DNA from: an uncultured Clostridiaceae bacterium
GTDB lineage: Bacteria; Bacillota; Clostridia; TANB77; CAG-508
DNA: 64,000 nucleotides
Direction of reading: 5' to 3'
Assembly (NCBI GenBank): GCA_946493085.1
Contig: CAMMAC010000001.1
Span: 2,593-66,592 of the forward strand
A model generated the notes under the pieces. That model was not told where the DNA came from and did no database searches. It saw only the letters and a list, made by a program, of their open reading frames with translations. The position numbers and the translations under genes were made by a program. Positions 8,936 through 48,608 of the stretch are shown one piece after another (position 1 is the first letter of the stretch; each line of letters starts with the position of its first letter).

Positions 8936-9074
8936 ATAGAAAATTACATAAAATAGATTGCTATAAGACAAGAATAAGTAGAAAATAATAAAAAGGTATA
9001 TTGAAATTAACCGAAAGGTAATATATAATAAAAGTATAGAGGATAAAAAACATAAGAAAAAGGAGAGGACAAGA
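8936..9074 (+). promoter_or_regulatory. Type-1 conserved leader of the variable family (copy A): upstream motif AAATTACATAAAATAGATTGC plus the promoter TTGAAA(9001-9006)-17-TATAAT(9024-9029)
   Basis: The same ~140-bp segment recurs at 9977, 11489, 12030, 12739 and, diverged, at 23078. It contains a near-consensus -35/-10 pair and an AGGAGAGGA RBS. Confidence 0.7.
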
Positions 9075-10077: not shown

Positions 10078-10269
10078 ATGATTACAGAAAAAGGAATTAC
10101 AATGGTGGCTTTGGCAGTAACCATCATTGTACTAATTATACTAAGGAAATATAAATTGGAGTACAAATACGATAACAGCTATAGTAAATCGACTAGAATG
10201 TCCATTATATGTACAATTATTTACAATATTATAAAACAAAAGAATAGTATAATAGAAAAGAAAAAGTAG
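10078..10269 (+). pseudogene. Variable-family copy B: truncated remnant (only ~22 aa of the conserved N-terminus, then frame decay)
   Basis: MITEKGITMVALAVTIIVLIIL then unrelated residues. There is a 27-nt stretch identical to copy A (GCAGTAACCATCATTGTACTAATTATACTA). Confidence 0.65.
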
Positions 10270-12167: not shown

Positions 12168-12652
12168 ATGAAGAGAGAAAATGGAATTACCATGATAACG
12201 TTAGCCGTAACCATTATTGTGTTAATTATCTTAGCAGGAGTAAGTATCAATATGTTGGTAGGAGATAATGGGATTATTACAATGGCGCAAAAAGCCAAGG
12301 AAAATATGGAACTAGCACAAATAGAAGAAGAGGAACAAATGAACAGTTTATATGAAGAATTAGCTAATGGGGCGAAGGAATTTTTGACGATTCTATGGGA
12401 GATGCTATAGAGAAATTAGAAAATTTTAGAAAGATAATAGCAACAGCTATAACGAATGAAGGAGTTGCTACAGCAGAAACAATGGCAGAGAATATTAGTA
12501 AAATATTAGAAGCAAGGACAAAAGATGTAACAGCTACAGCAGAAGATATAGCAGAAGGAAAAACAGCCTATGTAAATGGAGAAAAGATAGTAGGGACTGA
12601 AAAATATATTCATCTTATCCTAATACTGCAGGTATATATTATTGGAAATTAG
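12168..12652 (+). pseudogene. Variable-family copy D: frameshifted within the conserved module (two ORFs, 12168-12410 and 12395-12652), with the C-terminal domain missing
   Basis: MKRENGITMITLAVTIIVLIILAGVSINMLVGDNG... The frame breaks at ...EELANGAKEFLTILWEML and resumes as MGDAIEKLENFRKIIATAITNEGV.... It ends soon after DIAEGKTAYVNGEKIVGTEK. Confidence 0.7.
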
Positions 12653-12738: not shown

Positions 12739-12880
12739 AAAATTACATAAAATTAATTGCATAGCAAAAGAAATAAATAGAAAATAAAATAAAGAAATGT
12801 TGAAATTAACCAAAAGATAAGATATAATAAAAGTATAAAGAATAGAAAAAATGGAAAACATAAGAAAAGGAGAAAACGTA
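12739..12880 (+). promoter_or_regulatory. Type-1 leader (copy E) with consensus TTGAAA(12799-12804)-17-TATAAT(12822-12827)
   Basis: Same architecture as the copy A leader. Confidence 0.7.
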
Positions 12881-16961: not shown

Positions 16962-17024
16962 GTGTCCATTTAAGTCAGTCTTTTTTGAGACATGTCTCAT
17001 TTAACCCTGACTTAAATGGACATT
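16962..17024 (-). repeat. REP-like composite palindromic repeat (full copy, minus orientation)
   Basis: Outer 15-bp inverted repeat GTCCATTTAAGTCAG...CTGACTTAAATGGAC around the self-complementary core GAGACATGTCTC. The reverse complement aligns nearly end to end with 46682-46743. Confidence 0.7.
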
Positions 17025-17145
17025 AGTCGAATGATGTCGAAAAATAACTGATTGTACATTAGTATTGTTAAATCACATACAATATGATATATTAGTATAT
17101 GGAAATAATCATAAAGACCAACACTAAGTACAATAGTACATAGTA

Positions 17146-21928: not shown

Positions 21929-21947
21929 TATATTTGGGTGAACTTTA

Positions 21948-21978
21948 GGGGCAGTCCTTAAAGTTCATTTAGAAAAAT
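21948..21978 (+). terminator. GAACTTTAGGG palindrome family member, acting as a terminator after the 21338 gene
   Basis: GTGAACTTTAGGGGcagTCCTTAAAGTTCAT forms an RNA stem with G-U wobbles only on the plus strand. Confidence 0.6.
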
Positions 21979-22012
21979 AAAAGTTAGTTCGTAACCGTGA
22001 ATAATGCTCACT

Positions 22013-22043
22013 GTCCCATTTAAATCAGGGATAAGTGGGACAT
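22013..22043 (+). repeat. REP-like repeat, partial copy (GTCCCATTTAAATCAGGGATAAGTGGGACATTTTT)
   Basis: Matches the right half of the 46682-46743 element. It sits immediately upstream of a type-2 leader. Confidence 0.65.
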
Positions 22044-22168
22044 TTTTAAAAATAAAGTCGAAAATTATGGAAATAAGTAACTACTAAAAAGCAAAAATAA
22101 AGAGTAAAGAAAAATAGAGAAACGATATAATCCTCTCTGTAAAATTAGATAGCAGGGAGGATAAAATT
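22044..22168 (+). promoter_or_regulatory. Type-2 conserved leader (copy F): GTCGAAAATTATGGAAATAAGTAAC...TATAAT followed by an SD-sequestering hairpin (22132-22160)
   Basis: CCTCTCTG pairs with CAGGGAGG (one G-U wobble), occluding the RBS GGGAGGA. The same architecture occurs at 22915-23010 and 46744-46862. Confidence 0.6.
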
Positions 22169-22906
22169 ATGCCAAAACAAAAGAGTGGAGAAGAAGGAAT
22201 TACTATGATAACTTTAGCAGTAACAATCGTAGTATTAATTATTTTGGCAGGAGTTAGTCTAAATGCAACTGTAGGAGAAAATGGAATTATCTCGCAGGCA
22301 CAAAAAGCAAGGGAGAATATAGAGATAGCAAGAGAAGAAGAAGAGATACAATTAAATAATTTGTATGAAGAATTAGCAAAGGGAGGAGAAGGGATTTTTG
22401 ATGATTCTATGACAGATGCCATAGAAAAATTAGAAAACTTTAGAAAAATAATAGCAACAGCCATAACAAATGAAGGAGTTACTACAGTAGAAACAGATAC
22501 AGCGGAAACAATGGCAGAAAATATTAGTAAAATATTACAAGAACGAACAAAAGATGCAACAGCAACAGCAGAAGATATAGCAGAGGGAAAGACTGCTTAT
22601 GTGAATGGGAATAAAGTAGTTGGAACAGCTCATAATAGTGATGAAATTACTTTTTCAACGTTGTTAGTAAATTCAAGTTCTAGTAAATGTCTTATTGTTC
22701 CTTTAAATAAAAATTATAAAAATCTATCTATAACAAATATTTCAGGAGGAACAGGAGGCACAGGAACTGCAACTGTATATTTAGATGAAGTAGATAGCGG
22801 AACTTTTTATGCGGGAATGCCAGTTCCAATTGAATATGATTTAACAGATGTAGAAGAACTAAAGATTACTGGAAATCAAGTTTTCTTTACTCTAACAATT
22901 TTATAG
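22169..22906 (+). CDS. Variable-family protein, copy F (intact): N-terminal extension MPKQKSGEE, then the conserved module and a unique C-terminal domain
   Basis: GITMITLAVTIVVLIILAGVSLNATVGENGIISQAQKAREN...DIAEGKTAYVNGNKVVGT, then a unique tail (...ISGGTGGTGTATVYLDEVDSGTFYAGMPVPIEYDL...). Confidence 0.75.
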   Translation: MPKQKSGEEGITMITLAVTIVVLIILAGVSLNATVGENGIISQAQKARENIEIAREEEEIQLNNLYEELAKGGEGIFDDSMTDAIEKLENFRKIIATAITNEGVTTVETDTAETMAENISKILQERTKDATATAEDIAEGKTAYVNGNKVVGTAHNSDEITFSTLLVNSSSSKCLIVPLNKNYKNLSITNISGGTGGTGTATVYLDEVDSGTFYAGMPVPIEYDLTDVEELKITGNQVFFTLTIL

Positions 22907-22914
22907 GATTATGG

Positions 22915-23010
22915 AAATAAGTATCCACTAAAAAGAGAAATAAAAAGGTAACAAAAAATAAAGAAAATATATAATCCTCCTTGAAATTAGAGAAATCAAG
23001 GAGGATAAAC
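22915..23010 (+). promoter_or_regulatory. Type-2 leader (remnant G) with a perfect 10-bp SD-sequestering stem (TCCTCCTTGA / TCAAGGAGGA)
   Basis: TATAAT at 22970-22975. The hairpin spans 22975-23006. Confidence 0.55.
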
Positions 23011-23061
23011 TATGAACAAACAAAAGCAACAAAAGAATAAACAAAGAAGAATCGCACGATA
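23011..23061 (+). pseudogene. Variable-family remnant G: 16-codon N-terminal stub (MNKQKQQKNKQRRIAR*), homologous to the start of copy I (MMQKQKNKQKGITLI...)
   Basis: Sequence similarity to the first codons of the 46863 gene. A stop codon replaces the TM anchor. Confidence 0.5.
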
Positions 23062-23214
23062 AGTTTATATAATAACAAAATAACATAAAACGAATTGTAG
23101 TTAAAAAAGAAATAAGAGAAAATAAAAATAATACTTGATAATAGCCAAAAGGTAATGTACAATAAAGGTATAAATGTGAAAGAAATGGAAAACATAAGAA
23201 GAAGGAGTAAAAAA

Positions 23215-23481
23215 ATGAAAAATAATACAGGAATAACGATGGTTTCGTTAGTAGTAACTATAATAGTGTTAATCATCTTGGCAGGAGTAAGTATTAATAT
23301 GCTAGTAGGGGATAATGGAATTATAACCTTAGCACAAAAGGCGAAAGAAAATACAGAATTGGCACAAATAGAAGAAGAAAAACAATTGAATAGTTTATAT
23401 GGAGAATTAGTAAATAGCGGTGATGGAATTTTTGATGATTCTAATGTAGAGGCAATAGAGAAGAAAATGCAATTATTATAG
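23215..23481 (+). pseudogene. Variable-family copy H: truncated after ~85 aa of the conserved module (diverged type-1 leader at 23078-23214)
   Basis: MKNNTGITMVSLVVTIIVLIILAGVSINMLVGDNGIITLAQKAKENTELAQIEEEKQLNSLYGELVNSGDGIFDDSNVEAIEKKMQLL*. Confidence 0.65.
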
Positions 23482-26638: not shown

Positions 26639-26835
26639 ATTTTTTTAGTTTCTCCTTTTTCCTAATTTAACAGTATATATCATACATGAAAAAGGGAAAA
26701 TAGTCAATAAAATTAAGGAAATATTCATAGGAAAAACACAGAATTTTAACAAAGAAAATAAGAAAAAACATTGACATGAAAAAATAAAAGAAATACAATA
26801 AGAGTGAGTAATATAATAAAAGGAGAGAAAGCATA

Positions 26836-44056: not shown

Positions 44057-46703
44057 ATGTGGCATACAAAAGGAATTTCTAAAGTAGAAGAAGAGCTTGG
44101 GACAAGTATTAGGCAGGGCTTATCTGGAAAAGAGGCAAAAGAAAGACTACAAAAGGAGGGACCAAATGAACTGACAAGCAAGAAAAAAGAATCCTTGCTA
44201 GTACGTTTTCTTAAACAATTTAACGACTTTATGATTATTATTTTAATTATAGCATCCATTATTTCAGCAGTAGTAGCAAGCATAGAGGGAAGCGGAGACT
44301 ATATGGATTCCATTATTATTATAGCCATCGTAATAGTGAATGCGATGATGGGAGTTTTACAAGAAGCAAAGGCAGAAAAAGCATTAGAGGCATTAAAGAA
44401 TATGACAGCACCTACGGCAAAAGTAAAAAGAGAGGGAAAGGTACAAACCATACCAGGAATAGAAGTAGTACCGGGAGACGTTATTCTTTTAGAAGCAGGA
44501 AATTACGTGCCAGCAGATGCTAGAATTATAAAAGCATCGAATTTAAAAATAGAAGAAGCTAGCCTTACAGGAGAAACGGTAGCAGTAGAAAAGCAAGAAG
44601 GAATCATTCAGGAAGAAACAATAAGCATAGGGGATATGTATAATATGGTATTCGCCTCTACTATAGTGGTGAACGGACATGGTGAGGCAATTGTAACCCA
44701 AACAGGGATGCATACAAAAGTGGGACAAATTGCTAATATGATTATGGAGGAAGAAGCTCCTCAAACACCAATTCAAAAGAAGTTAGCAGAAGTAGGAAAA
44801 GCCTTAGGAATAGCCTGCTTAGTAATATGCACTCTTATCTTTGTAATAGGGCTATTGAAACAAATATCTCCAATAGAAATGTTTATGACTTCTGTGGGAC
44901 TTGCTGTGGCAGCTATTCCAGAAGGGTTGCCAGCCATTGTTACAATAGTATTATCGATAGGTGTAACAAAAATGGCAAAGAAAAACAGTATTATTAGACA
45001 TCTACCAGCAGTAGAAACATTAGGTAGTAGTAGCGTTATTTGTTCAGATAAAACAGGAACATTAACTCAAAATAAAATGACAGTAAGAGAAGTGTTTACT
45101 ATGGGAAGCACAAAAGAAGAACTAGCCCTTCAGTTTGGAACTATGTGTAGTGATGTAGTAGCAGAAGAAAAAGAAGCAGGACAAGAATTAGTAGGAGAAG
45201 CAACAGAAATTGCTATTGTAAGAGGAGCCATAGAAAAAGGCATTCGAAAAGAAAAATTAGAGAAAGAAGCACCAAGAGTAGCAGATATCCCTTTTGATTC
45301 TAATAGAAAAAGAATGAGTACGATCCATGAAAAAGAAGGACAATATCAAATTGTATGTAAAGGAGCGCCAGATGTTTTATTAGAGAGATGCTCCTATTAT
45401 CAAGACGGAGAAAAAATAAGTAGCCTTACTCCTCACATAAAGGAACAAATAGAAAAACAGAATGAAAAAATGGCAGAAAATGCCCTTAGAGTAATTGCAG
45501 TTGCCTATAAAATGCAAAGCGTGTTACCAAACACAATAAAAAGCGAAGAAATAGAAAATGAGCTTATTTTTGTAGGATTAATAGGCATGATAGATCCTCC
45601 AAGAGAAGGCGTAAAAGAAGCGGTAGCTACTTGCAGAAAAGCAGGAATTAAAACCGTAATGATAACAGGTGACCATGTCATTACTGCCAAAGCCATTGCC
45701 AAAGAGTTAGGCATTTTGAAAAGTGGAGATAAAAGTATTACAGGAGCAGAATTAGAAAAAATATCGCAAAAAGAATTAGAAAAAAATATCATGGGATATT
45801 CTGTTTTTGCAAGAGTATCGCCAGAGCATAAAGTAAGAATTGTAAAAGCTTTTCAGAGTACAGGAGCAGTGGTAGCTATGACAGGAGATGGGGTAAATGA
45901 TGCGCCTGCACTAAAAAATGCAGATATCGGTATTGCAATGGGACAAAATGGCACAGATGTAGCAAAAAACGCGGCAGACATGATATTAGTAGATGATAAT
46001 TTTGTGACAATAGTAGGAGCGGTAAAGCAAGGAAGAAATATTTATGATAATATTAAAAAGGCAATCCATTTCTTAATTGCTACTAATATAGGAGAAATTG
46101 TTACGATTTTTATGGGATTAGTATTAGGATTAAAAACGCCTCTTCTTGCCATTCAGTTATTATGGATAAATTTAGTAACCGATTCTTTCCCAGCCATTGC
46201 ATTAGGACTAGAAAAACCAGAAAAAGATATTATGAGCAAAAAGCCTAGAGATGCCAAAAAAGGTATTTTTGCAGATGGATTATGGAGTAAGATTTTTGTA
46301 GAAGGTATCATGCTTGGTATGCTTACACTATTTGCTTTTAGTATAGGAAACTATCTATTTGGTTTAGAAGTGGGAAGAACAATGGCATTTGTATCATTAG
46401 GAATGTTAGAATTAATCCACAGCTTTAATATAAAAAGTGAAGAAAGTATTTTCAAAATGCGGATTTTTAGAAAACAAATATCTATTGGGAGCCTTTTTAT
46501 TAGGAGCGGCGTTACAAATAGGAGTTGTCGTTATTCCACCACTTGCACAAATCTTTGATGTAGTTCCACTAAATGGAATGCAATGGTTATATACCATAGG
46601 AATTTCGCTGTTACCAATTCCAATTATGGAATTACAGAAAAAATGGAATGAAATAAAATTTGGAAAAGTAGTATATGGGGTGTCCCATTCAAGTCAGGGT
46701 TAA
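44057..46703 (+). pseudogene. P-type (type IIA, Ca2+-like) cation ATPase interrupted by a frameshift near 46450
   Basis: DKTGTLT phosphorylation motif, TGDGVNDAPAL hinge, PEGLP in TM4. The final TM helices continue in another frame (ORF 46437-46703). Confidence 0.8.
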
Positions 46704-46743
46704 GTGAGACATGTCTCAAAAATGTCAGGGATAAGTGGGACAC
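46682..46743 (+). repeat. REP-like composite repeat (full copy) overlapping the 3' end of the ATPase and abutting the type-2 leader
   Basis: GTCCCATTCAAGTCAGGGTTAAGTGAGACATGTCTCAAAAATGTCAGGGATAAGTGGGACAC: internal palindrome GAGACATGTCTC and direct repeats of GTCAGGG(A/T)TAAGTG(A/G)GAC. Confidence 0.7.
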
Positions 46744-46862
46744 ACAAAGAAAAAAGTCGAAAATTATGGAAATAAGTAACCAGTAAAAAAGGAAAAGTAA
46801 AAGAGAAGAAAAAGCAAAGAAAGATATAATCCTCTTTATAAGAAAAAAGCAAGGAGGATAAG
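46744..46862 (+). promoter_or_regulatory. Type-2 leader (copy I) with TATAAT (46825-46830) and an SD-sequestering hairpin (46831-46858)
   Basis: CCTCTTT pairs with AAGGAGG(A) (includes a G-U wobble). Conserved block GTCGAAAATTATGGAAATAAGTAAC at 46756. Confidence 0.55.
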
Positions 46863-48608
46863 ATGATGCAAAAACAAAAGAATAAACAAAAAGGTATTAC
46901 ATTAATTGCATTAGTTGTAACAATTATCGTTTTAATTATACTAGCGGGGGTATCCATTAACATGTTAGTAGGAGATAATGGAATTATAACACAAGCACAG
47001 ATAGCAAAAGAAGAAACTGAACAAACACGCAAGGAGGAATTACAAGAATTAGCAACTTTAGAAACAGCTCTAGAAGAAGCTTCTGGGAATATTTATGTTA
47101 AAGAAGAAGGTGTAAATAAACCAAGGTTGACTACTGGAATGACACCAATTAAATTTATAGATCCCACAGATACAACTAAAGGAAGTGTTGTTATAACTAC
47201 AAGTGAGGATAAAGATTGGTATCAGTATGATGAAAAGAAATGGGCAAATGCCCAAACGGAAGATGGAAGCATGTGGGTATGGATACCAAGGTTTGCATAT
47301 AGAGTAAATGAGAGTACTAAAACTTTTGATGTTGTATTTTTAATAGGAACAACAGATACGTATTATGATAGAAATGGGCAAATACAAACAGCAAAACGTT
47401 GTACGAGTGAAGATGAATTAGTAGATACAAGCACAGGCTATACCGTGCATCCAGCCTTTACAGATGAAACAGACATCAACTTTAGAAACGGAGGATGGGA
47501 TAAAGAAATAACAGGTATATGGGTAGCTAAATTTGAGGCAGGCTATGCTAGTGGAAATAATGGTGCAGAAGTAGTAGCAAGTAGCGTGAACTATAGTCAA
47601 AGTAATGCATGGATAAGAAGTATAGAATTACATGGAAACACTACAACAGGCGATGGAAATGGAAATGCAAGAAACTGGTTAGATGGCATCTATGAAAGTA
47701 CAACAACAGCCATTAAATACCCTGTATTTCAACCAACAACCTATGGTATGAATTATATTAATATAAATGATGCTTATAATATAGCAAAAGTATTAACAGA
47801 GAATGGAAATATCTATGGCTTTAATGGAGCAGCAGACAGCCACTTAATGAAAAATAGTGAATGGGGAGCTTGTGCCTATCTATCCAAGAGTCAATATGGA
47901 TTAAATACAATAGACATAGCTATAAATAATATAACTTTAAATAGTGGAGCAAAACAAAGAACAGAAGCAGCAGGGCAAAATGAGGTAGATAGCGTATATG
48001 CAGTAACAGGCTGTACTACGGGAAATACAACAGGAGAAAAACAAACAACCATAGAAAATATCAATGCAACAACAGGGAATACGGCACTAGATGGAGTATA
48101 TACGTGGGATCAGTTAAATGGAATAAAAGCAAGTTGTACAGGAACTATTTATGGGATATATGATTTAAGTGGAGGTTTAGTGGAAAGAACAACAGGATAC
48201 GTAGCAAATGGAAAAAAAGAATTAAAAAATTATGGAGCATCTTTTACTTATGAAGATGATGTTTTAAAAACAGTTAGTACCAAATATGCAACTGTATATA
48301 TAAATAATAACACAACAGATAATGCTAGTGTAACGGATACACAAGAGCATTTAAATATAGCAAGTACGAATAACTGGCTAGCAAATAAATTAATCTATGG
48401 CGATGCCATCCGAGAGACATCTACACAAGGAACTGGCAATAATTCATGGTATGAAGATGACTCTTACTTCCCAGGACTTTACTATCCGTTTACTATCCGC
48501 GGCGGAAGTTTCAGAGGTATGGATGGACCTGGTCTATTTAATTTCAGCCGTACTAATGCTCCTAGCCATTATGGAGATGGATTTCGTGCAGTTGTAATTG
48601 TGTCGTAA
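46863..48608 (+). CDS. Variable-family protein, copy I (intact, 581 aa): pilin-like anchor plus short conserved module, large unique extracellular region, C-terminus with an FGE/C-type-lectin-like signature
   Basis: N-terminal MMQKQKNKQKGITLIALVVTIIVLIILAGVSINMLVGDNGIITQAQIAKEE. The C-terminal ...GLYYPFTIRGGSFRGMDGPGLFNFSRTNAPSHYGDGFRAVVIVS resembles the RGGSW...GFR ending of FGE-sulfatase / CLec-fold domains. Confidence 0.75.
   Translation: MMQKQKNKQKGITLIALVVTIIVLIILAGVSINMLVGDNGIITQAQIAKEETEQTRKEELQELATLETALEEASGNIYVKEEGVNKPRLTTGMTPIKFIDPTDTTKGSVVITTSEDKDWYQYDEKKWANAQTEDGSMWVWIPRFAYRVNESTKTFDVVFLIGTTDTYYDRNGQIQTAKRCTSEDELVDTSTGYTVHPAFTDETDINFRNGGWDKEITGIWVAKFEAGYASGNNGAEVVASSVNYSQSNAWIRSIELHGNTTTGDGNGNARNWLDGIYESTTTAIKYPVFQPTTYGMNYININDAYNIAKVLTENGNIYGFNGAADSHLMKNSEWGACAYLSKSQYGLNTIDIAINNITLNSGAKQRTEAAGQNEVDSVYAVTGCTTGNTTGEKQTTIENINATTGNTALDGVYTWDQLNGIKASCTGTIYGIYDLSGGLVERTTGYVANGKKELKNYGASFTYEDDVLKTVSTKYATVYINNNTTDNASVTDTQEHLNIASTNNWLANKLIYGDAIRETSTQGTGNNSWYEDDSYFPGLYYPFTIRGGSFRGMDGPGLFNFSRTNAPSHYGDGFRAVVIVS

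Follow-up and report, generated by a model that had tools for sequence, protein, structure and literature searches.

Why would a gene carry, just in front of its start codon, a stem that buries its own Shine-Dalgarno (SD) sequence? This question is raised by a group of pilin-like paralogs from an uncultured Clostridiaceae bacterium. The stretch of DNA analysed here, 64,000 nucleotides of one contig and henceforth termed the window, contains three leaders for which such a fold had been proposed, together with base changes that appeared to keep the pairing intact from copy to copy. Here, we follow this hairpin from the three copies to a set of homologous leaders, examine the promoter-like box at its edge and the genes around it, and weigh what it may do.

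Two kinds of leader in a family of pilin-like genes

The window has a G+C content of about 31% and contains housekeeping and sporulation genes, namely those for ComEC, ClpC, a topoisomerase, MinDE and RodA and a BofC-like gene. Identical or nearly identical contigs come from human-gut metagenome assemblies, and the nearest genomes are metagenome-assembled genomes (MAGs) of uncultured Clostridia. Seven copies of the paralog family occur in the window. At the N-terminus, their products have a hydrophobic helix like that of type IV pilins (…KG/ITLIALVVTIIVLIILAGVSIN), and about 150 N-terminal residues are conserved while the C-terminus is variable. Copy F (22169 to 22906, plus strand) shows this layout in a pilin-like protein of 245 amino acids with the N-terminus MPKQKSGEEG/ITMITLAVTIVVLIILAG, and copy I (46863 to 48608, plus strand) encodes a pilin-like protein of 581 amino acids starting with MMQKQKNKQKG/ITLIALVV. 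Several copies are truncated or frameshifted, among them B (10078 to 10269), C (12168 to 12652) and H (23215 to 23481), and the family therefore has pseudogenes beside intact copies.

Assignment of the family to known proteins is limited to its N-terminus. None of the 339 homologues of copy F has a precomputed Pfam domain, a weak, sub-threshold N_methyl match was found for the copy I protein alone among the window paralogs, and a profile built from the family alignment gave a weak match to the N-terminus of the MshA pilin when compared with the PDB. Apart from this weak resemblance to the N-terminal helix of type IV pilins, the family could not be assigned in Pfam or NCBIfam. At two further loci, L137 (10973 to 20819, with two type-2 pilin-like genes in tandem) and L152 (11905 to 16162), a conserved cluster lies downstream of the pilin-like genes, with a SAF-domain protein encoded first. 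SAF domains are found in CpaB, and the position of type-2 genes upstream of this cluster hints that subunits of a type IV or Tad-like filament system may come from this family.

The window paralogs have two kinds of leader, termed type 1 and type 2. Type-1 leaders in the window (9021 to 9074, 12800 to 12880 and 23135 to 23214) contain a canonical TTGAAA-17-TATAAT promoter and lack RNA structure, with fold energies of about 0 kcal/mol. Leaders of this type also occur at L003, L007, L009, L013, L025 and other loci. Across the family their promoters read TTGAAA or TTGACA-17-TATAAT, the spacer TTAACCnAAAGGTAAT is itself conserved across MAGs, and the 5'UTR contains a conserved block GGAAAACATAAGAAAAAGGAG; spacer and block together suggest a common regulator site. 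Type-2 leaders precede copy F (22064 to 22168) and copy I (46763 to 46862), and a third one, remnant G (22908 to 23011), begins 2 nt past the stop codon of copy F. All three lie on the plus strand. Behind remnant G follow a truncated 16-codon ORF (MNKQKQQKNKQRRIAR and a stop; 23012 to 23062, plus strand), then a type-1 leader and then the truncated copy H.

The type-2 module is a repeated unit with a fixed order of parts, which in copy F are a conserved block, an A-rich spacer, TATAAT, the hairpin with the SD sequence, and a spacer up to the ATG at 22169. An alignment of 30 modules places the start of homology at AAAATTATGG. The upstream block ATTATGGAAATAAGTAAC (22064 to 22081 in F, 22909 to 22926 in G and 46767 to 46784 in I) lies at a fixed distance of 46–48 nt from TATAAT and has the highest information in the module apart from GATATAATCCT. 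It is possibly a candidate site for a regulator or activator, which the fixed spacing would fit. We considered and rejected a reading of this block as a mini-ORF of six codons (MEISN[HYQ] and a stop, as in MEISNH-stop): it lacks an SD sequence, and several copies no longer have the stop codon. The type-2 block ATTATGGAAATAAGT is also similar to the type-1 5'UTR block ATGGAAAACATAAG.

A hairpin covers the Shine-Dalgarno sequence

The SD-sequestering hairpin proposed by the sequence-only reading was recovered in all three window copies, with the arms at the positions it had given. In copy F, TATAAT (22126 to 22131) abuts and overlaps the 5' (anti-SD) arm ATCCTCTCTGT (22130 to 22140), which pairs across an A-rich loop (22141 to 22151) with the 3' arm GCAGGGAGGAT (22152 to 22162) containing the SD core GGAGG (22156 to 22160). 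This 11-bp stem, two of whose pairs are U·G, folds with -16.0 kcal/mol (z = -4.5), a value that none of 200 shuffled sequences equals. Remnant G has its TATAAT at 22970 to 22975 and the arms ATCCTCCTTGA (22974 to 22984) and TCAAGGAGGAT (22996 to 23006); the pairing is perfect, as had been claimed, and extends over 11 bp instead of the 10 counted earlier (-16.3 kcal/mol, z = -5.2, 0/200 shuffles as good). The hairpin of copy I is weaker: behind TATAAT at 46825 to 46830, the arms ATCCTCTTT (46829 to 46837) and AAGGAGGAT (46851 to 46859) form 9 bp with one U·G (-8.9 kcal/mol, z = -2.5, 5/200 shuffles as good). The type-2 SD sequence that forms the 3' arm is AAGGAGGA.

When the whole 146-nt leader of copy F was folded, both the minimum free energy (MFE) structure and the centroid kept this hairpin alone as a stable element. 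Of the 45 window ORFs with an SD-like motif, copy F alone has a long and clean stem that sequesters the SD sequence. In the leader of the ClpC-like gene (about 26640 to 26700, minus strand), a pyrimidine run UUUCCCUUUUUC pairs with GGAAAAAGGAGAAA, including the SD sequence, at -11.6 kcal/mol. No Rfam family matched anywhere in the window at the gathering score, and a permissive search of 21930 to 23220 returned chance-level matches only (E > 2, far below gathering).

Covariation across homologous leaders

Since three copies are too few to assess covariation, relatives were collected without using the hairpin as bait. Three sources were used: a protein-profile scan of species-representative genomes; a scan of metagenome DNA anchored only on ATATAAT, ATG…AACAAAAG and GGNRTNAC; and the contigs of homologous proteins with the type-2 N-terminus M-x-KQK. 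The hairpin-agnostic pattern of the metagenome scan matched 55 stretches, only eight of which were true type-2 leaders; the protein-based route supplied further ones. A pilin-motif scan of all loci then yielded 138 distinct leaders, including 30 of type 2.

The MFE fold pairs at least five of the seven bases of the SD window in 28 of these 30 leaders; the exceptions are L058, in which the hairpin is lost, and one leader whose SD window was misplaced by the script. A type-2 set defined by regular expression (33 leaders, including three false matches) has a mean fold energy of -14.6 kcal/mol; in the family's 105 other leaders the MFE averages -3.2 kcal/mol, and the SD sequence is paired in 12%. 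The stability of individual type-2 stems varies between -9 and -22 kcal/mol without apparent tuning, and their loops measure 8–13 nt.

In the alignment of the 30 type-2 leaders (A3; helix columns 9–19 and 33–43), the 11-bp helix is 94.8% paired. Both sides change in four of the 11 pairs (U-A in 23 leaders and C-G in 5; U-A 17 and C-G 9; G-C 24 and A-U 3; U-A 17, U·G 10 and A-U 2). None of 500 column shuffles reaches the observed values for the percentage paired, the number of compensatory cells or the covariation score, and sliding the partner by one to three columns lowers the pairing to 47–59%. Stem haplotypes such as CTG/CAG, TCG/CGA, TTG/CAA, TCA/TGA and CTA/TAG occur almost only as matched combinations. 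At the two positions opposite the first SD guanines only C or U is found, with 24 U·G cells. U·G cells number about 40 in total, and the minus strand would have C·A mismatches at each of these places, which argues for selection on the plus-strand RNA. A plus-strand RNA hairpin that masks the SD sequence is thus well supported as a target of selection, and both parts of the earlier proposal, compensatory changes with wobbles that work only in the plus-strand RNA and a selected structure over the ribosome-binding site, carry over from three copies to 30 leaders.

A covariance model (R1) of a 49-nt motif was built from A3. It recovered every known copy with 47–74 bits, including F (22122 to 22171, 62.2 bits), G (22966 to 23014, 56.3 bits) and I (46821 to 46868, 64.1 bits), and in addition the intact leader L092 and six decayed remnants. 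The type-2 hairpin is so far known from a narrow clade of uncultured gut Clostridia. Decayed remnants with truncated mini-ORFs are located in the window (22908 to 23481) and at L155 (1864 to 2000), L141 (10888 to 10935), L149 (9359 to 9403), L157 (1630 to 1675), L033 (1071 to 1113) and L152 (11501 to 11538). Some of them sit directly upstream of a type-1 leader and its gene, as in G and H of the window and at L155. These remnants suggest that the paralogs recombine and turn over frequently.

A promoter-like box abuts the anti-Shine-Dalgarno arm

The sequence-only reading had noticed that a TATAAT lies directly 5' of the anti-SD arm and could, as a -10 element, exclude the arm from the transcript. 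This turned out to be the key point of the locus. The hexamer is TATAAT in 29 of the 30 leaders and TACAAT in the remaining one, and the arm starts at the adjoining base in all 30. Arm positions 1–7 are all pyrimidine in 28 of the 30, and every leader has G or A at position 8, the top of the core stem. The would-be partners of TATAAT in the spacer between SD and ATG (columns 44–48) are 56% paired and lack covariation, so we rejected an extended helix of TATAAT and spacer as part of the conserved structure. The extension is fully formed in L037_1792, L071 and L119, and in L037_1792 it gives a 15-bp perfect palindrome. Pairing therefore does not account for the conservation of this nearly invariant box, which has no covarying partner.

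Sigma-A promoters initiate at a purine 7–8 nt past the -10 element. In copy F, TATAAT is followed by seven pyrimidines and then by G22139, which this spacing rule predicts as the start site. An RNA starting there would lack the whole anti-SD arm, and its SD sequence is predicted to be open: at 37 °C, the calculated probability of an unpaired SD sequence has a median of 0.0005 with the full arm and of 0.85 in RNAs starting at arm position 8. As the 5' arm fills the gap between TATAAT and the expected start exactly, the structure probably exists only in transcripts begun upstream.

Other promoter elements are scarce. A promoter scan found no -35 element with at least four of six matches upstream of TATAAT in F or I; remnant G alone reaches 4/6 (GTAACA-16-TATAAT, 10/12 overall). 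Given the lacking -35, a promoter at this box would need an activator or an UP-element. The type-2 module contains no other promoter-like site, and beyond the upstream block, about 47 nt 5' of TATAAT, the modules are no longer homologous. Sites for alternative sigma factors (sigma-54, ECF with TGAAAC-N16-CGT, SigH, SigD, SigE and SigK), compared by eye with their consensus sequences, were discarded since none fits across the variants. An invertible promoter was likewise rejected: the arms lie 8–13 nt apart where about 100 bp or more are needed, they differ between paralogs, and there is no adjacent recombinase in the window.

A different, unrelated leader type was seen in other MAGs, at L041 (about 2440 to 2506) and L047 (about 90 to 155). 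Here, an anti-SD CCTCAT lies within the spacer of a TAGAAA-17-TATAAT promoter and pairs with a GTGAGG SD sequence about 33 nt downstream (-7.4 and -9.5 kcal/mol). With its arm upstream of the predicted start site, this layout is an independent, though weaker, case of the same design.

Genomic context

Most type-2 leaders lie where transcription could reach them from upstream. Among the 26 with enough upstream sequence, 23 have a co-oriented ORF upstream, and 15 lie within 200 nt of a co-oriented stop codon, versus 17 of 95 leaders of other types (Fisher odds ratio 6.3, p = 2e-4, a value uncorrected for shared locus ancestry). The stop codon of the upstream gene adjoins the 105-nt module in ten cases, in the manner of G behind F, and several type-2 leaders belong to tandem arrays of type-2 genes (L034, L035, L037, L137 and L149). 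In the remaining three of the 26, which include L033 and L149_6487, the upstream gene is divergent and the hairpin intact. The leader that has lost its hairpin, L058, has no close co-oriented neighbor, but it is a single case, and such cases are too few to draw a conclusion on hairpin strength versus upstream context.

The region behind the stem is distinctive as well. T makes up 42% of the spacer between SD and ATG in type-2 leaders versus 13% in other leaders, with a mean T-run of 3.3 versus 0.86 (p ~ 1e-11), and six of the 30 leaders (L035a, L064, L137b, L141, L145 and L155) carry T6–T7 directly after the stem. Tails of this kind are exemplified by AATTTTTTT in L035a, and those of the F type by ATAAAATT.

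A palindromic repeat, TGTCYCA-N-AAGTCAGGGNTAAGTGRGACA, occurs as one or two units and folds into a hairpin with -13 to -22 kcal/mol. In the window it is located at 16962 to 17025, 22013 to 22043 and 46680 to 46743, and elsewhere at L033, L141 and L157. About one third of the type-2 modules have it upstream, and in one case it lies between divergent genes; it could represent a small repeat element or a terminator.

Proposed mechanism and alternatives

Taken together, these data lead us to a model in which the type-2 hairpin most likely insulates each pilin-like gene from upstream transcription: read-through transcripts are silenced, and transcripts from the module's own promoter, lacking the 5' arm, are translated. 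We assign this model a probability of about 0.5. RNA begun upstream of TATAAT, by read-through from a co-oriented gene or an upstream paralog, would contain both arms and fold into a very stable hairpin of 9–11 bp that buries the SD sequence, leaving the pilin-like gene untranslated. Polymerase at the module's own TATAAT would instead start at about arm position 8 (G22139 in F), and the resulting mRNA would present its strong SD sequence for translation. In this manner, the hairpin would make each variable pilin-like gene depend for its translation on its own promoter, which probably requires an activator. The T-rich spacers and the six T6–T7 tails suggest that some copies may also terminate incoming transcription, such that polymerase may stop at the hairpin in copies with a U-rich tail.

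Several observations weigh against the insulation model. The TATAAT box has no recognizable -35 element, and promoter activity is something that we infer. Three of the 26 leaders keep the hairpin behind a divergent gene; about one third of the modules are preceded by the TGTCYCA hairpin, which may already terminate upstream transcription; and the similarity of the type-2 block to a type-1 5'UTR block means that the type-2 transcript could start further upstream. In the principal alternative, the hairpin is part of the principal mRNA, either because this mRNA begins upstream, with TATAAT serving another purpose, or because the gene is expressed only within an upstream operon. The hairpin would then keep the gene off by default until it is opened in trans, for instance by an RNA-binding protein, a helicase, an sRNA or processing by RNase. 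Selection on the helix shows that two-armed transcripts exist and matter, and the missing -35 element, the hint from the block that it is transcribed, the upstream gene adjoining many modules and the precedent of IS200 (PMC4513863) all favor such an arrangement. It leaves unexplained, however, why TATAAT is nearly invariant, why its spacing to the arm is zero and why seven pyrimidines and a purine follow. Furthermore, apart from TATAAT itself, the modules conserve nothing promoter-like 5' of the arm, their homology does not extend past the block, and an anti-anti-SD segment was not found. Stems as stable as -14 to -22 kcal/mol, for which the 146-nt leader offers no alternative fold, would all but prevent translation of a presumably abundant structural protein. 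On balance, we regard default repression as rather unlikely. The hairpin might also act mainly as a terminator or attenuator before the start codon, with SD masking as a by-product, an explanation compatible with the insulation model and consistent with the T-rich spacers, the T6–T7 tails of six leaders and a GC-rich stem of 10–11 bp. Yet the loops of 8–13 nt exceed the 3–8 nt of the terminator definition, the tail starts A-rich in most copies including F, G and I, and the terminator scan called none. As the covariation is also centered on SD pairing, with the arm following the SD-flanking bases and not a generic stem, termination as the main function appears improbable.

Two further explanations have still less in their favor. 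The inverted repeat covers the -10/+1 region, a frequent position for operators, and might be read at the DNA level as a palindromic operator for a dimeric regulator, as a site of cruciform formation or recombination, or as a quasi-palindrome maintained by template switching, a process that can yield seemingly compensatory changes. However, the arms differ among paralogs of a single genome (L035a and b, L037a and b, and F, G and I), making a single operator-binding protein unlikely. The roughly 40 T·G positions, which are A·C mismatches on the other strand, have been left uncorrected, an argument against a protein-read palindrome, a cruciform and template-switch correction alike. Opposite G, moreover, the 5' arm changes only from C to T, the signature of RNA pairing. 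We consider a DNA-level element very improbable. An RNA thermometer or another melting-type switch that opens at host temperature, a role raised by the sequence-only reading, is hardly credible in light of the folding data. ROSE and fourU elements do use a local hairpin to sequester the SD sequence, as the type-2 leaders do. Yet the fold check that had been proposed for 25, 37 and 42 °C, which we extended to 50 and 60 °C, gave no melting: in partition-function calculations, the mean probability of an unpaired SD core stays below 0.01 at all five temperatures in 27 of the 30 leaders. The stems are perfect or nearly so and lack the internal mismatches typical of thermometers, their stability varies widely and untuned, and the bacterium experiences the constant temperature of the gut. 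A third suggestion of that reading, that the hairpin keeps silent cassettes untranslated, is not supported either, as type-2 genes are complete, are scattered among housekeeping genes and each have a promoter-like box; decay is confined to G and a few copies like it.

An extension of the insulation model would make it family-wide, as "one promoter, one protein": copies would stay silent unless their own activator-dependent promoter fires, giving mutually exclusive or switchable variants of a surface filament. The setting is one of gut Clostridia with many pilin-like genes that have variable C-termini, often stand in tandem and are in some cases decayed. Such a system would put the fold-back trick of phages and insertion sequences to the service of antigenic or functional variation in a cell without DNA rearrangement. 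We regard this extension as speculative and unlikely.

If the insulation model is true, a device of T4 late genes and insertion sequences also serves ordinary chromosomal genes, and densely packed paralogous surface-protein genes are insulated from mutual transcription. The hairpin would then mark which pilin-like paralogs are regulated independently, and the succession of -10 box, anti-SD pyrimidine run, purine, loop and SD sequence would provide a search rule for insulators in uncultured Firmicutes. The 49-nt motif of R1 is an uncurated cis-regulatory RNA and a candidate for RNA family collections.

Comparison with known systems

The closest parallel is found in bacteriophage T4, in which the late promoters of e, soc, 49 and I-TevI lie within the DNA for the 5' strand of an SD-sequestering helix; translation is shut off in the long early transcripts, about 100-fold in the case of lysozyme, and takes place on the late ones, which lack the 5' strand (PMC3014915). 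As in e and I-TevI, the type-2 SD sequence is masked by a helix with a putative own promoter at its 5' strand. Unlike the T4 genes, which form a temporal switch of a phage, the type-2 genes are pilin-like paralogs on a bacterial chromosome, their box is a sigma-A-type TATAAT and not the gp55 late promoter TATAAATA, and the leaders of the two systems share no sequence homology.

Among mobile elements, IS10 is protected from external promoters by a "fold-back" mechanism. Transcripts entering IS10/Tn10 from outside sequester the translation signals of the transposase in secondary structure, and the situation is similar in IS3, according to a passage in PMC13181058 that cites Davis, Simons and Kleckner (1985). 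In contrast to IS10, the gene protected by the type-2 hairpin is no transposase and the module no end of a mobile element; it would insulate tandem or closely packed cellular genes. The left end of IS200 has a near-consensus SD sequence within a stable stem-loop, together with a barrier to impinging transcription (PMC4513863). Being located within the 5'UTR of the transposase gene itself, that stem-loop acts as a constitutive repressor, whereas in type-2 leaders a -10-like box abuts the arm and the own transcript probably lacks it. This geometry argues against a stem-loop of the IS200 type contained wholly in the own primary transcript.

With ROSE and fourU elements the type-2 leaders share a local hairpin that pairs the SD sequence, and differ by perfect stems with a GC-rich core, for which no melting is predicted at temperatures up to 60 °C. 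With Rho-independent terminators they share a GC-rich stem and, in a subset, a U run. Their loops of 8–13 nt set them apart, as does a 3' arm that is the SD sequence of the next gene, and in most copies the U-tract is absent or separated by A. Of the four features of the T4/IS10 class, SD sequestration alone is shown for type-2 leaders; a fitting promoter position and transcription from upstream have the support of sequence and context, and differential translation is a prediction, so that their place in this class is tentative. The regulatory principle of the type-2 hairpin is not itself new; the hairpin is a new member of an already known sort of cis-regulatory device.
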